In this document: in pieces, positions 5,162 through 10,529 of the stretch
How the letters are laid out: each line of letters starts with the position of its first letter
Numbering within the stretch: position 1 is the first letter of the stretch
Assembly: GCA_027491915.1 (NCBI GenBank)
Contig: JAOZGC010000002.1
Location: 288,001 to 352,000 of the forward strand
Length of the DNA: 64,000 nt
Direction of reading: 5' to 3'
Source: Thermoproteota archaeon
GTDB taxonomy: Archaea; Korarchaeota; Korarchaeia; Korarchaeales; Korarchaeaceae
Notes under the pieces: generated by a model
Databases searched by the model: none
The model's input: the letters and a program-made list of their open reading frames with translations, nothing else
What the model was told of the DNA's origin: nothing
Program-made: the position numbers and the translations under genes

Positions 5162-6364
5162 TTGTCTGATGAGGGCCGTCCGAGGACCGTCAGGGACATC
5201 CTCCTCGAGATGAAGGACGCCTCGGAGACGGCGGTCAGCCTATCCTACGCGGCCCTCATGTTCAGCGACGAGGAGATAGCAGAAGAGGTGCTCGAGCTGG
5301 AGAACAGACTCGACGAGCTCAGGTACGAACTATCCGTCAGGACCATCCTGGCCGGGAGGACCCTGGAAGACGCTAGGGAGCTGGCCGCCGTGCTGGAGAT
5401 AGGGAGCGCCGCGGACGAGATAAGCGACGCGGTCGGCGACCTGGCGAAGCTCGTGAAGAGGGGGTACCCCCTCCACCCCTCGCTGCTGGAGGCCTTCTGG
5501 GAATCAGACGAGGTTCAGGGGATAGTCAAGGTCGTGGACGGCTCTCCGCTGGCCGGGATGAGAATCTCCGACCTCAGGGATCCCAGCGCGCTGGCCGGGT
5601 GCGATCTCCTGGGGATCAAGAGGGGCGGGAGGTGGATCTTCAACCCCCCGGAGGACGGGAGCCTGAGGCCCGGTGACGTGCTCCTCTTGGAGGGAACCAG
5701 GGAGGGGCTGATGGCCGTCAAGGGACTCTCGGGTAGGTCCGGACCAGTCCAGACAGTCCCCCCCCAGCGGGGGGCCGGGGAGGCCGCGAGGTTGGTGGAA
5801 CTGATAAAGGCCCTCAAGTCCCTCTCCGAGCTCATGGTCTACCTGGCGTACGCGGCCATCCTGCTGAACAACCAGGGCATGGCCTACGAGATATCGAAGC
5901 TGGAGGACGAGGTGGACGACCTGCACGAGATCTTCCAGGGGGAGGTCCTCTCCAGCCTGGTCGGTAGGGCGGAGATAAGGGAGATAATAGGGCTGCTGAG
6001 GGCCGGATCTTCGGCGGAGAGGATCGGGGACGCGGCCAACAGGATGGCGTCCGTGGTAGAGAGGGGCATCCCCACCCACCCCGTGCTGGCGGACGTCGTA
6101 GAGAGGAGCGGGGAGACCATAGTCAGGCTGGAGATACCCGAGGGGAGTCCGGCCGCAGACCGGCCCATAGGAGAGCTCAACCTAGAGGAATCGACCGGCA
6201 TGGAGGTTCTGGCTATAAAGAGGGGGATCAGGTGGATATACGATCCCAAGGACTCCGTCAGGCTGAGGGCGGGAGACGTGGTCCTGTTGCTGGGGTCTCC
6301 CTATGGGGAGAGGGCGGCCGAGGAGGTCCTGGGTATCGGGAGGAGAGGAGGTCGATCCGATTGA
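5162..6364 (+). CDS. Duplicated PhoU + TrkA-C domain protein (putative ion-transport regulator)
   Basis: Two repeats of EMKD.SE....L.YAA..F...EIA.EV..LE followed by TrkA-C (GSP.A...LAIKRG.RWI..P....L..GDV). Confidence 0.85.
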   Translation: MSDEGRPRTVRDILLEMKDASETAVSLSYAALMFSDEEIAEEVLELENRLDELRYELSVRTILAGRTLEDARELAAVLEIGSAADEISDAVGDLAKLVKRGYPLHPSLLEAFWESDEVQGIVKVVDGSPLAGMRISDLRDPSALAGCDLLGIKRGGRWIFNPPEDGSLRPGDVLLLEGTREGLMAVKGLSGRSGPVQTVPPQRGAGEAARLVELIKALKSLSELMVYLAYAAILLNNQGMAYEISKLEDEVDDLHEIFQGEVLSSLVGRAEIREIIGLLRAGSSAERIGDAANRMASVVERGIPTHPVLADVVERSGETIVRLEIPEGSPAADRPIGELNLEESTGMEVLAIKRGIRWIYDPKDSVRLRAGDVVLLLGSPYGERAAEEVLGIGRRGGRSD

Positions 6365-7803
6365 CCGAGCTGAGGCTGACCGCCCCCCTGTCCTGGCTAG
6401 ACGGGGTGGACCCGAGGACCGGCAGGATAACCCAACCCGATCACCCCCAGAGGGGAGAGTCCATAGCCGGCCGGATCCTGAGGCTGCCCGGCTCCGTCGG
6501 GTCGACCGTGGGGGCCTACACCTTCTTCAAGCTGAGGAGGATGGGGACGGCCCCCTCGGCCATAGTGCTGGAGAGGCCGGACAGCATAACGGTGAGCGCC
6601 GAGATGGCCGGGATACCGGTCAAGGTGCTCGGAGCCCAGACCAATCCCGAACTGGACCTGGAGGGGGTCCCCGATCGTGTCAGGCGCTTCCTCGAGAGGG
6701 AGGCCTCCGCCTCCGGCGCGGAGGAATTCGCCCGGGTTCGCTCCGTCCACATATCCGGGATATCCTACTGGACAATAGGCGAGGCCGGACTGGACTTCCT
6801 GGAGGGGATGGCGCGGGAGGCCAGCTTCAGGGTCCCGGCCACCCTGAACCCAGCTGGCATGGACCTCTCCCGATGGGCGGACATGGGGGTTCCTGAGGGG
6901 TTCGCCGAGAGGCAGCTCAGGATAGTGGAGGCGCTGGTGAGGATGGGCGCGATACCGACGCTCACCTGCACCCCTTACCTGGCAGGGAACCTCCCTAGGT
7001 TCGGCGAGCACGTCTGCTGGGGCGAGTCCAGCGCGGTCGCCTTCGCCAACAGCGTCTTGGGCGCCCGGACCAACAGGGAGGGTGGGGTGAAGGCCGTGGC
7101 GGCCGCGGTGGCCGGGGTTACCCCCCTCTACGGCCTCCACCTGAGGGAGAACAGGTCGCCAGACCTCGAGGTGGAGGCGACTGCCCGGGTCTCCGGGAGA
7201 ACTAGGTTCTCAGAGCTGGGATACCTGGTGGGATCCCTTAGCCCCAGCGCCGTCCCGGTCTACAGGGGACTGGGATCTCCCTCCGCGGACGAGCTCAAGT
7301 CCCTCGGCGCCGGAGGGGCGGCCTCGGGGGGGATATCCATCTTCCACGTCCCGGGGGTGACGCCCGAGTCGCCTCGGCCCCGGGAGGGGGCGGACCGGGT
7401 GACGGTCGTTGACGACGATCTGGACGACGTCGAGGAGAGCCTGTCTACGACCGGATCTGAGCCGGACCTGGTCGCTATCGGCTGCCCCCACCTCTCGCCC
7501 CTGGAGATCCTCGAGGTGGCCACCCTCCTTGAGGGGAGGCGGGCGGCCGTCCCCTTCTGGCTGTTCACCTCCAGGGCCGCGCGGGCCCAGCTCCCTAATT
7601 GGGTGGAGCCCGCGCTCAGGAGGGCCGGGGCTGACCTGTTCGTGGACACCTGCATGGTGGTCGCCCCCCTGAGGGAGGCCGGCCACCGGGTCGTGGCCAC
7701 GGACTCGGCCAAGGCGGCCAAGTACCTGCGGACGCTCGGCGGACTGGAAGTCGTGCTGGCCCCCCTCGATAGGCTGATCTCCGAGTACACCTCACCCGCC
7801 TGA
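6361..7803 (+). CDS. Aconitase X, fused swivel (small) and catalytic (large) subunits; likely phosphomevalonate dehydratase
   Basis: N-terminal swivel motif (LSWLDGVDP.TG.I....HP..GESIAGRIL..PG..GSTVG); catalytic motifs H.SG.SY, TLNP, CTPY, WGESSA..FANSVLGARTNREG, GCPH, DTCMVV, TDSAKAA.Y. TTG start at 6361 overlaps the upstream stop and follows GGAGG. Confidence 0.85.
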   Translation: MTELRLTAPLSWLDGVDPRTGRITQPDHPQRGESIAGRILRLPGSVGSTVGAYTFFKLRRMGTAPSAIVLERPDSITVSAEMAGIPVKVLGAQTNPELDLEGVPDRVRRFLEREASASGAEEFARVRSVHISGISYWTIGEAGLDFLEGMAREASFRVPATLNPAGMDLSRWADMGVPEGFAERQLRIVEALVRMGAIPTLTCTPYLAGNLPRFGEHVCWGESSAVAFANSVLGARTNREGGVKAVAAAVAGVTPLYGLHLRENRSPDLEVEATARVSGRTRFSELGYLVGSLSPSAVPVYRGLGSPSADELKSLGAGGAASGGISIFHVPGVTPESPRPREGADRVTVVDDDLDDVEESLSTTGSEPDLVAIGCPHLSPLEILEVATLLEGRRAAVPFWLFTSRAARAQLPNWVEPALRRAGADLFVDTCMVVAPLREAGHRVVATDSAKAAKYLRTLGGLEVVLAPLDRLISEYTSPA

Positions 7804-7805
7804 TC

Positions 7806-9089
7806 TCAGATTCCGAGGACCTGGGCGTACCCCTCAAGGTCGAGCAGCCCGTGTCCAGAGTAGTTGAACACTATGACCCTCTCCTCACCCTCCTCTTTGG
7901 CCCTCAGGGCCTCGTCTATGGCCGCCTTAACGGCGTGCGACGTCTCGGGGGCCGGTATTAAGCCCTCAGTCTCGGCGAACAGCCTGGCCGCCCGGAACAC
8001 CTCGTCCTGCGGGTAGGCCACCGACTCCACCACCCCCTTGGCCTTCAGCAGGGAGACCGTCGGCGCAGCCCCGTGGTACCTCAGCCCCCCGGCGTGTATC
8101 GGGGGTGGGACGAAGTCCGATCCCAGGGTGAACATCTTCAACAGGGGGGTGGTCTTGGCCGAGTCCCCGAAGTCGTACCTGTACTCCCCCCCGGTCATGG
8201 ACGGACAGGCCTCGGGCTCCGCCGCCAAGAACCTGACCCCCCTCATCTCCCCCCTCAACACCTTCCCCACGGCCGGGAAGGTGAAACCGGCGAAGTTGCT
8301 CCCTCCCCCGACGCACCCTATCATGACGTCCGGCTTCTCGCCCACCTCCTCCAGCTGGGCCAGCACCTCCTGGCCTATGACCGTCTGGTGCAGGAGGACG
8401 TGGTTGAGCACGCTTCCCAGGGCATATTTCGTCGATTCCCTGGTCACCGCCGCCTCGACCGCCTCGCTTATCGCTATCCCCAGGGATCCGGGGTGGTTTG
8501 GGTCCTCCTCCAGGAATCTCCTCCCAACGCGAGTCAGTTCGCTCGGCGACGGGACGACCTCCGCCCCGTAGAGCCTCATGACGTACTTCCTGTAGGGCTT
8601 CTGCTGATAGGAGACCCTGACCATGAAAACCAGCACCCTCCTGTCCGTCATCGCCCCCGCGTAGGACAGGGCGGATCCCCACTGCCCGGCGCCCGTCTCC
8701 GTCGTCAGGGTCTCGGTCCCCTCCTCGGCCGCGTAGTAGGCCTGGGCCAGGGCGGTGTTGAGCTTGTGGCTCCCGGTCGGCGTCACGTCCTCCCTCTTGT
8801 AGTAGATCCTGGCGGGGGTCTTGAGGTACCTCTCGAGCCTCTCGGCGCGGTAGAGCGGGGTGGGCCTCCCTATCCTCTCGTACATCTCCCTGACCTCTTC
8901 CGGGATCTCCACCCACCTCTCCCTAGAGAACTCCTGCCTTACGCACTCCCTGGCGAAGAGGGGTTCGAGATCCACCTCCCTCACCGGCTCTCCGGTCTCG
9001 GGATTCTTCATGGGCGGGAGATCGGGCAGGTCGGCCAGGATGTTGTACCACCGCCTCGGGATGGCGCTCACGTCCAGATCGATCCTCAA
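7806..9089 (-). CDS. trpB2: Tryptophan synthase beta chain type 2 (TrpB2)
   Basis: WYNI.ADLP, GRPTPL.RA, SHKLNTA (PLP Lys), [43 protein letters not shown]. Confidence 0.95.
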
Positions 9090-9589
9090 TCCGACTCACC
9101 TCCTCCAACACCAACCAGATCCGATATGCGGACCCTCACGTCCGGGGGATCGAAGTCCAGCACGTGCCTGGTGGTCTTCGGGGGGAACAGCTCCCCCCTG
9201 GCGGACCTCCTCAGCACCTCCCCCCTCGACACCGGGATCTCGCTGCGTCTCGGGTACAGCTCCAGCCTCTCCGACTCGTAAGGTATGAGCACCGCCGGTA
9301 TGAGCCTGGCCCCCATGGATCTCAGCGCGGCCAGCCTGTGATGTCCGTCGAGGACGGTTCCGGTGCTCCTCTCAACCAGTATCGGCCTGAACAGAACCCC
9401 GTCCTCCGCTATGCTCTCCCTCAACTTCTCCAGCCTGTCGATCGAGATCATCTCGTGGGGCCGCAGGAGATCCGCGTCGACGAAGGAGACGGAGATCCCA
9501 TCTCCGAGGTCGATCCTCCGGGGGAGAGGGTACCCGGATCCCACCCTCCGGGGGAAGACCGCCTCACGGGGAGAACCAAAGTAAACCAC
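9086..9589 (-). CDS. ParB/Srx-fold protein, SerK-like free-serine kinase (short form); start uncertain (9544/9589/9646)
   Basis: LRPHE, PILV, LDGHHR.AAL..MGA...P and C-terminal [13 protein letters not shown], matching the SerK/SbnI motif set as I recall it. Confidence 0.75.
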
Positions 9590-9836
9590 CCATGCCTGAT
9601 CCCTCCCCCCTCCCGTGCGTCCGCGCTGGGCGGGGGGCCCGCCCACCCATATAATCTTATCGGCCCACGCCCCCAGATTCGGGCCCTAATTTTAACAGAT
9701 CGACCCGATCTCTCCTCTGGGATAGCAGGGACGCCCGGTCGGGGACGATCTGGGATAATCCACTCGATCCCTCTGATACCGACCGAAACCGGGGCCACCC
9801 ATCGACGCTTTTTATCGCCCCCCCCGAGGGATCGAG

Positions 9837-10529
9837 GTGCCCGCGCCCAAGAGGCTGCTCAGGGAGATGGAGGCTCACCTGGTCGAGCTGATGGTGGGTG
9901 ACCCGAGCGGGCTCCCAGGGGACCTCTCCGACTACCTGTCCTCGGTGGGGGCCCTGAGGGGGGGAAGGTTAGATCCGGTCAGAACCGCGCTGGCGTGCGT
10001 CGAGGTCGGGATGCCCCCCGAGAGGGCCGCCGCCATGCTGGATTGGAGGGGGTTCGAATCTTTCGTGGCCGAGACCATGGCCGAGATCGGGCTCGCATCC
10101 TTCAGGGGGGTCTCTTTCTCCCTCGGGGCGAGGAGGTGGCAGGTGGACGTGCTGGCCGGGAGGCCGGGGATGACCCTGTCCGTGGAGGTCAAGATGTGGT
10201 CCCGCCGGCCCGCGATGTCCGGTCTCAGGGCGGCCGTCAGGACCCACTCCGAGAGGACGAGGGAGCTGGCCCTGGCCATGCCCTCCCTCCGGACGAGGCT
10301 CCCCGTGGTGGAGAGGCCCTCTCACGTCGTGCCCGTGGTTGTCACCTGGTTCTCCCCGGAGGAGATCATCGACGGAGTCCCGCTGGTGCCGCTCCGCTCG
10401 CTGTCGTCGTTCCTCTCGGAGGTAGACTCCATGCCAGACTCGGTCGTCGGGTTCCCCTCCCAAGCCTCTCTGTCCCCCTCCCCCCTCCCCGACAGCAGCT
10501 CCCTGGCCCCCCTGGAGAAGGTCAGGTAG
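9837..10529 (+). CDS. PD-(D/E)XK restriction-endonuclease-like (Mrr/NERD-type) protein
   Basis: LDWRGFESFVA, QVDVLA, VEVKMW, PVVVT, DGVPLVP. Confidence 0.7.
   Translation: MPAPKRLLREMEAHLVELMVGDPSGLPGDLSDYLSSVGALRGGRLDPVRTALACVEVGMPPERAAAMLDWRGFESFVAETMAEIGLASFRGVSFSLGARRWQVDVLAGRPGMTLSVEVKMWSRRPAMSGLRAAVRTHSERTRELALAMPSLRTRLPVVERPSHVVPVVVTWFSPEEIIDGVPLVPLRSLSSFLSEVDSMPDSVVGFPSQASLSPSPLPDSSSLAPLEKVR

Follow-up and report, generated by a model that had tools for sequence, protein, structure and literature searches.

A short SerK-like gene overlapping trpB2 in a korarchaeal genome: a candidate source of O-phosphoserine for tryptophan synthesis

Introduction

The 64,000-nucleotide (nt) stretch analysed here, referred to as the window, comes from a Thermoproteota archaeon of the Korarchaeaceae (contig JAOZGC010000002.1, positions 288,001 to 352,000). 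On its minus strand, at 7806..9589, it carries a short gene of the serine kinase (SerK) type that overlaps the gene of a stand-alone tryptophan synthase beta chain, TrpB2. We propose, with a probability of roughly 0.6, that the two form an operon in which a mini free-serine kinase feeds O-phosphoserine to TrpB2 for the synthesis of tryptophan from scavenged indole. What the analysis shows is the layout of the two genes, the homology and predicted fold of the small protein, its conserved residues and a recurrent adjacency to pyridoxal phosphate (PLP) dependent beta-replacement enzymes; kinase activity, the phosphate donor, the use of O-phosphoserine by TrpB2 and an external origin of the indole are what we infer. 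As far as computation goes, the interpretation of a path from serine via O-phosphoserine to tryptophan is supported.

Stand-alone TrpB2 enzymes are widespread, are often encoded outside trp operons and bind indole tightly. O-phosphoserine as the substrate that TrpB2 prefers was reportedly described by Busch and colleagues in 2014, and we know of no dedicated source of O-phosphoserine that has been described for TrpB2. Merkl (2007) gives trpB2 genes outside trp operons as being without a conserved neighbourhood. A pairing of trpB2 with a serine kinase gene was not found described in the literature searched, a search to which supplements and subscription journals were external. The mini kinase appears, from its sequence and model, to be a truncated variant of the free-serine kinases, encoded together with TrpB2 in an operon that is probably conserved and that has not been described before.

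Results

Anatomy of the gene pair

The mini-kinase gene (9086..9589, minus strand) encodes a protein of 167 amino acids (aa) with a ParB/Srx-fold core when read from the GTG at 9589, and the downstream trpB2 gene (7806..9089, minus strand) encodes a stand-alone enzyme of 427 aa with a TTG start. The stop codon TGA of the kinase gene occupies 9088-9086 and the trpB2 start codon 9089-9087, so the four nucleotides TTGA at 9086..9089 are common to both genes. The 4-nt overlap had already been reported in the first-pass annotation, and reading both open reading frames (ORFs) on the minus-strand sequence bore it out. Within the kinase gene, a Shine-Dalgarno-like GGAGGAGGTGA (9096..9106, minus strand) precedes the TTG of trpB2 by 6 nt. 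Both genes would belong to one translationally coupled operon, whose shared TTGA and internal Shine-Dalgarno-like sequence may keep the two proteins in step.

The likely 5′ control region of the pair lies at 9601..9660 on the minus strand, where promoter and ribosome-binding roles are suggested by an AT-rich ATAAGATTATAT at 9649-9660, in a genome of 66% G+C, followed by a GGGAGGGGGGAGGG run at 9601-9614. This G-rich, GGAGG-like run is 11-25 nt upstream of the in-frame GTG at 9589. The program-made ORF list gives the minus-strand frame as 9086..9646, with 186 aa counted from its first GTG, and 9646, 9589 and a GTG at 9544 are all possible, uncertain starts of the gene. Homologues and the confidently modelled portion of the protein begin near residue 24-30, and residues 1-23 are poorly modelled and not common to homologues.

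The small protein is closest to SerK and SbnI

ParB_N was the sole Pfam match of the mini kinase and stayed below its cut-off (24 bits vs 26.3). The Pfam scan matched neither the SerK middle domain PF18231 nor a helix-turn-helix (HTH), dimerisation or other DNA-binding domain in the 167-aa protein. Among the NCBIfam profiles SerK (NF053625) ranked first with 74.7 bits (cut-off 380) in two separate stretches, and SbnI (NF033589) second with 31.8 bits (cut-off 350) over the N-terminal core only; Noc and ParB scored well below both, ParB TIGR00180 reaching 17.7 bits (cut-off 58.45). In a phmmer search of the Protein Data Bank (PDB) sequences, the best matches were PF0380 (1vk1; E 3.7e-20) and Tk-SerK (5x0b; E 1.2e-19), and ParB proteins matched only at E >1e-3.

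The phmmer alignment to SerK falls into two pieces, pairing residues 33-122 with SerK 17-107 and residues 121-158 with SerK 204-241, and a profile built from 62 family sequences splits in the same way. Some 95 SerK residues (about 108-203, PF18231/DUF5603) are therefore absent while both flanks are kept, as had been suspected at first reading for the central inserted domain of the Thermococcus enzyme. The central domain does occur in the full-length relatives P0058, P0064 and P0076.

Three motifs noted in the first-pass annotation, PHE, DGHHR and PKTTRHVL, could be read directly from the sequence (all on the minus strand). PHE (9452..9460) contains H45 and E46, the latter aligned with SerK E30, the residue mutated in PDB entries 5x0e (E30A) and 5x0j (E30Q). 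DGHHR (9335..9349) falls where the ParB/Srx fold has its nucleotide-phosphate loop, and may have the corresponding role. PPKTTRHVL (9158..9184) lies in the C-terminal strand that packs on the core and corresponds to part of SerK 204-241. Nine residues, G82, H83, H84, R85, Y104, P136, K138, T140 and H142, are invariant in the 62 family members, at least 90% of which also have H45, E46, D81, P137 and T139. DGHHR is invariant in the 20-member alignment A1, GHHR in alignment A3, and PPKTTRH is invariant or nearly so in the 20 and the 62 members; both motifs are identical in SerK. In the family-profile alignment E46 and D81 coincide with a Glu and an Asp of SbnI, which are reportedly needed for its activity (Verstraete 2018). 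With residues conserved this near to perfection, an enzyme is to be expected and not a decayed ParB.

An AlphaFold2 model made with the 62-row alignment reached a mean predicted local distance difference test (pLDDT) of 87.6 and a predicted template modelling score (pTM) of 0.82. Foldseek returned SerK first and then SbnI (E 1e-10 to 3e-7), with chains of the ParB type at E ~1e-3 or worse. Superposition by VIA-align on 1vk1 gave Z 18.2 and a root mean square deviation (rmsd) of 2.0 over 133 residues at 33% identity, and Z was 17.1 for the complex of SerK with phosphoserine and AMP, followed by SbnI with 15.9. Overall the Z values ranged from 17 to 18 for SerK and from 13 to 16 for SbnI, and were ~7 for sulfiredoxin, Noc and ParB. 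The comparison by profile and structure that had been suggested as a check therefore puts SerK and SbnI, not ParB, as the closest relatives by sequence and predicted fold. A canonical ParB/Spo0J/Noc protein (TIGR00180, PF02195) was rejected, as ParB_N and TIGR00180 are both below cut-off, no further domain is present and the fold similarity is only Z ~7. A complex prediction with kinase residues 22-162 (62-row alignment) and TrpB2 (12-row alignment) scored 0.00, compared with a threshold mark of 0.32, and weighs neither way.

The TrpB2 partner

The TrpB2 of the window passes both curated cut-offs over residues 2-425, with 697 bits for NF009057 (cut-off 366) and 684 bits for TIGR01415 (cut-off 518.85). 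It aligns end to end with the solved TrpB2 enzymes of Sulfolobus solfataricus (6hul, 6hte, 4qys), at 526 bits for 6hul_B and 478 bits for 6hte_B and 4qys_B. H108, K109 and N111 are invariant in 12 kinase-linked TrpB2 sequences and the same stretch is identical in 6hul_B; its lysine is presumably the PLP lysine of TrpB. What sets the window enzyme apart from the known ones is that it is the only tryptophan-pathway gene found, in an operon with a putative kinase gene.

Tryptophan and phosphoserine genes of the source genome

The source genome (1.117 Mb in 4 contigs, 91% complete) was searched as a whole. No trpA was found, the sole match being triose-phosphate isomerase, nor was indole-3-glycerol-phosphate synthase (trpC), or trpD, whose matches were two AMP phosphorylases. 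Neither trpB1 nor any second TrpB was found, so that the window TrpB2 is the only TrpB-like gene, and a tryptophanase was not seen in this genome either. The first-pass statement that the window has no trpA or other trp gene thus extends to the genome for trpA, trpC, trpD and trpB1; trpE, trpG and trpF were not part of the search. With no other tryptophan-pathway gene found, the kinase-TrpB2 pair would be the only route to tryptophan besides import.

CysK and CysM were likewise not found across the genome, in which the other PALP genes encode two threonine-synthase-like proteins, and SepRS was not found. NCBIfam identifies the gene resembling phosphoglycerate dehydrogenase (PGDH) as a glyoxylate reductase gene (560 bits, cut-off 455), and no SerC was seen, since the Aminotran_5 matches were SufS and GcvPB only. 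Serine hydroxymethyltransferase and the glycine-cleavage P subunit are present, and free serine could therefore be made from glycine. By this gene inventory, the mini kinase appears to be the only visible source of O-phosphoserine and TrpB2 its only visible consumer.

The gene pair in the source phylum

Among the 43 species genomes of the source phylum, whose nearest named loci are metagenome-assembled genomes of the Korarchaeota type, 18 contain the mini kinase in strong copies (E ≤1e-37), 21 in total. Two more genomes held only weaker, longer forms, which brings the number to 20 genomes at E ≤1e-10. Thirteen of the 21 strong copies adjoin TrpB2 (in G000, the source genome, and in G001, G002, G005, G008, G009, G010, G012, G013, G016, G017, G025 and G027). 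The other eight adjoin a CysK/CysM-like PALP gene in co-directional or divergent orientation (L106, L107, L110, L119, L120, L121, L125, L126), and three of these PALP genes seem to be split in two pieces. Every one of the 21 copies thus has a fold-type II PLP beta-replacement enzyme as its neighbour. Such enzymes are few in any one genome, so this cannot be chance, though related genomes are not independent samples.

TrpB2 was over its cut-off in 34 of the 43 genomes. TrpA matched (E ≤1e-10) in three, in two of them over the family cut-off, and each match adjoins a TrpB1-like gene. The picture that these gene contents suggest is of a phylum that, in the genomes sampled, retains the final enzyme of tryptophan synthesis but not the preceding ones and would not be able to make indole. 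PGDH was over its cut-off in none of the 43 genomes, and some of the genomes with the kinase-TrpB2 pair also contain a SerA-like gene paired with a class-V aminotransferase gene. A pattern in which the kinase is present where SerA/SerC are absent was looked for across the 43 genomes; it was not clean, and nothing is drawn from it.

In one of the CysM-linked loci (L107; G024:C1, 365-2876) the mini kinase is located between a ThiF-family gene and a divergent gene for a 318-aa CysM-like PALP protein. A setting of ThiF and CysM recalls sulfur-carrier-dependent cysteine synthesis from O-phosphoserine. Two further loci, from more distant members of the phylum (G029:C16 1579-4875 and G030:C3 21374-24704), contain a ParB/SerK-like ORF of 373-401 aa that matches in the N-terminal core only and clusters with genes for a class-V aminotransferase and a PGDH-like dehydrogenase. 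These clusters resemble the serK-serA-aminotransferase clusters of Desulfurococcales presented by Makino (2016).

Relatives in other archaea and in bacteria

A protein search returned 80 relatives at E ≤1e-3, mostly of 110-190 aa, from archaea and some bacteria. In public databases they go by generic names ('ParB N-terminal domain-containing protein', 'transcriptional regulator', 'hypothetical'), with one JGI entry bearing the name 'L-serine kinase (ADP)', and the Protein Atlas gave only generically named clusters. It had been expected that automated pipelines would label the gene merely ParB-like, and the names of the relatives are in line with this.

In species-representative genomes 262 relatives were confirmed by a search from a 10-row alignment, and the locus counts that follow refer to the best 80 of these 262. 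TrpB2 is directly adjacent on the same strand in 13 of the 80 loci, seven times with the kinase first and six times with TrpB2 first, and these loci span Korarchaeia-like archaea, Micrarchaeota, Bathyarchaeia, Nitrososphaeria, Beckwithbacteria and Bacillota. Six of the seven kinase-first loci have a complete TrpB2, and their junctions measure −4 nt (L002, L004, L013), −1 nt (L005) and +11 nt (L001, L003); in the seventh (L011), left out of this count, TrpB2 is cut by the contig end. One kinase-adjacent TrpB2, from Candidatus Beckwithbacteria (L046:3670-4983), has a single in-frame stop codon that may be a sequencing error, the mark of a pseudogene or a recoded stop, and its row was omitted from alignment A4.

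A CysK/CysM/CysO-like PALP enzyme is the neighbour in another 13 of the 80 loci, adjacent in 11 and within 0.4-0.8 kb in two. Two such neighbours that were checked, from Acidilobaceae and Pyrodictiaceae, match the O-phosphoserine sulfhydrylase CysO of Aeropyrum pernix with 181 and 244 bits, and one of them retains Arg297, which is cited for phosphoserine recognition by Makino (2016). An N-terminal extension of the A. pernix enzyme itself (residues 2-76; 6l0p_A, 3vsc_B) superposes on residues 35-162 of the mini-kinase model (m61ce081d4aae) with Z 6.0-6.1 and rmsd 2.4 over 73 residues at 12-14% identity, a middling likeness that may reflect a common fold only. The likeness is curious because CysO-type enzymes adjoin mini kinases.

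In a quick maximum-likelihood tree of 84 rows and 137 columns, in which many forks are unresolved, the TrpB2-linked kinases occupy about four places: a Korarchaeia-like group with Micrarchaeota and Nitrososphaerota rows, a pair from Bacillota, a pair of Bathyarchaeia and Beckwithbacteria, and one Nitrososphaeria row. The tree implies four changes of state, of which well-supported branches force at least two, compared with 13.2 on average for shuffled labels. Placed at several points of the tree, the adjacency is therefore neither unique to the source genome nor limited to one clade. An adjacency confined to this genome would have spoken against the functional link as first proposed; TrpB2 neighbours were found in both archaea and bacteria.

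Other genes beside the pair

A 523-aa Aconitase X protein is encoded convergently at 6232-7803 on the plus strand, its 3′ end 3 nt from the trpB2 stop. Its 'swivel' domain PF01989 (residues 53-130) is fused N-terminally to the catalytic PF04412 (157-516), and the best NCBIfam match is cis-3-hydroxy-L-proline dehydratase with 290 bits (cut-off 700). Upstream of the kinase gene, a divergent ORF of 230 aa (9837-10529, plus strand) has a weak, sub-threshold match to the Holliday junction resolvase Hjc (19.6 bits) and no NCBIfam match.

Discussion

The reaction sequence may be depicted as follows: The mini kinase, made up of the ParB/Srx nucleotide-binding core and a short C-terminal strand and helix bearing PPKTTRH, would phosphorylate free L-serine at the expense of a nucleotide to give O-phospho-L-serine, with E46 as the catalytic base and with DGHHR and PPKTTRH holding the phosphates and the substrate. 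TrpB2 would then join O-phosphoserine to indole taken up from outside the cell, yielding L-tryptophan with phosphate as the leaving group. One phosphoanhydride bond would be spent in this way for a better leaving group, which may pull in scarce indole. The donor may be ATP, ADP or another nucleotide: a paper by Mori from 2021 reportedly deals with an ATP-dependent enzyme, and Tk-SerK uses ADP (Makino 2016).

The SerK enzymes of Thermococcus kodakarensis (TK0378) and Pyrococcus furiosus (PF0380; PDB 5x0b-5x0k, 1vk1) share with the mini kinase the ParB/Srx core, the Glu of PHE, DGHHR and the C-terminal PKTTRH, at 32-33% identity over 130-136 structurally aligned residues, and the reaction proposed here is the same, a conversion of serine into O-phosphoserine that a PLP beta-replacement enzyme then uses. 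The mini kinase differs in being without the central residues and in its partner, which is TrpB2, not CysK or SerA/SerC. The short family is also far wider in distribution than is given for SerK by Makino (2016), where clear homologues are named only in Thermococcus, Pyrococcus, Desulfurococcus and Staphylothermus (Thermococcales and Desulfurococcales). Staphylococcal SbnI (PDB 5uje, 5ujd, 6nr6) has the same fold, with the Glu and the Asp of D-G-x-H-R aligned, and is paired with the PLP enzyme SbnA, so that the logic of a serine kinase gene beside an O-phosphoserine-using PALP enzyme is the same. It is longer, however (about 254 aa compared with 167 aa), and has an additional C-terminal portion; its C-terminal motif is poorly conserved with the short family, and it serves siderophore synthesis. 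The DUF1015 'SerBK' proteins (GapMind 2026, PMC13759103) are likewise remotely SbnI-like and tied to phosphoserine metabolism by gene context, but they belong to a separate and larger family with links to serA/serC, which the mini kinase did not match in any search. A 2025 survey of the ParB fold and GapMind 2026 treat SerK, SbnI and DUF1015, but not the short family or TrpB2.

Could the small protein act without being a serine kinase? It might be a nucleotide-sensing accessory protein or regulator, itself without catalytic function, that binds a fold-type II PLP enzyme (TrpB2, CysK/M) or the gene of that enzyme. This would suit a fold that is often a nucleotide switch; one SerK-like protein bound CTP, and SbnI also regulates transcription and is named 'bifunctional transcriptional regulator/O-phospho-L-serine synthase' by NCBI. 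The two different PLP enzymes found as partners of the 21 phylum copies would fit a shared regulator too. A binder would not need the equivalent of the SerK Glu and both active-site motifs, though, which are near-invariant in the 62 sequences, and with no HTH or other DNA-binding domain in the protein and enzymes known to use phosphoserine among its neighbours, we consider such a regulator unlikely. That it is a plain ParB-like DNA-binding protein or nuclease, beside trpB2 without metabolic meaning, appears very improbable: ParB_N is its sole Pfam match and the close SerK relative PF0380 was once named a nuclease (Makino 2016), yet fold and sequence are far nearer to SerK and SbnI than to ParB, the adjacency is seen again in other phyla, with stop and start codons that overlap, and every one of the 21 copies in the source phylum adjoins a PALP enzyme.

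The protein might instead be a phosphotransferase that uses another hydroxy-amino acid, with a different product of TrpB2 as the outcome, or that runs from O-phosphoserine and ADP to serine and ATP, which has been proposed for DUF1015 SerBK. The missing middle domain could alter the choice of substrate, the SbnI-like DUF1015 proteins may act both ways according to GapMind 2026 (PMC13759103), and the gcvH-gcvP genes that lie directly downstream of some mini kinases point to a general turnover of serine and glycine, not to tryptophan. What the TrpB2 and CysO-type neighbours have in common is, on the other hand, the use of O-phosphoserine, and the source genome shows no SerA/SerC route to the O-phosphoserine that the reverse direction would need. 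We therefore doubt this explanation as well, and give it little weight.

Several observations weigh against a serine kinase dedicated to TrpB2. The score of the mini kinase for SerK is far below the cut-off (74.7 vs 380 bits) and its PF18231 domain is missing. The gcvH-gcvP context occurs in 13 of the 80 loci, all in Thermodesulfobacteriota-type bacteria (L021, L022, L027, L031, L036, L040, L053, L055, L056, L060, L061, L073, L074); these kinases form a single clade with 98% support in the SH-like approximate likelihood ratio test (SH-aLRT), and an ACT-domain gene is upstream of the kinase in six of the 13. At 41 of the 80 loci, mostly from Thermoplasmata, no TrpB2, CysK/M/O or gcv neighbour was found within the flanks. 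In genus g4 of the source phylum TrpB2 is present in 21 of 21 genomes and the mini kinase in four, never adjacent to TrpB2, so TrpB2 can do without the kinase, which is not its universal partner. In two genomes (G011, G024) TrpB2 adjoins, in opposite orientation, an unrelated carbamate-kinase-like gene and ornithine carbamoyltransferase. The absences in the source genome are provisional because it is only 91% complete, and it contains a HAD-IB phosphoserine-phosphatase-like gene (126 bits, below the cut-off of 151.9), the product of which could counteract a phosphoserine pool.

A broader and more tentative reading, to which we give somewhat less than even odds, is that the short proteins are widespread, unrecognised minimal free-serine kinases that act as portable generators of O-phosphoserine beside any fold-type II PLP enzyme in need of activated serine (TrpB2, CysM/CysK or CysO-type enzymes), with SerK and SbnI as elaborations of this core. 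O-phosphoserine would then be the true physiological substrate of stand-alone TrpB2. The source phylum would consist of tryptophan auxotrophs living on environmental indole and on serine activated by the kinase, and is read in this way because TrpB2 is over its cut-off in 34 of the 43 genomes but TrpA matches in only three.

The puzzle of TrpB2 is two decades old, and a putative kinase gene that overlaps trpB2 here and is paired with it again across archaeal and bacterial phyla offers a direct and cheap test. If the proposed serine kinase is borne out, the free-serine kinases, now confined to a few hyperthermophiles and to staphylococci, would come to include a large family that pipelines label 'ParB-like' or 'transcriptional regulator', and their minimal catalytic core would be defined. 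The prediction of amino-acid auxotrophy for archaea with small genomes would change as well.

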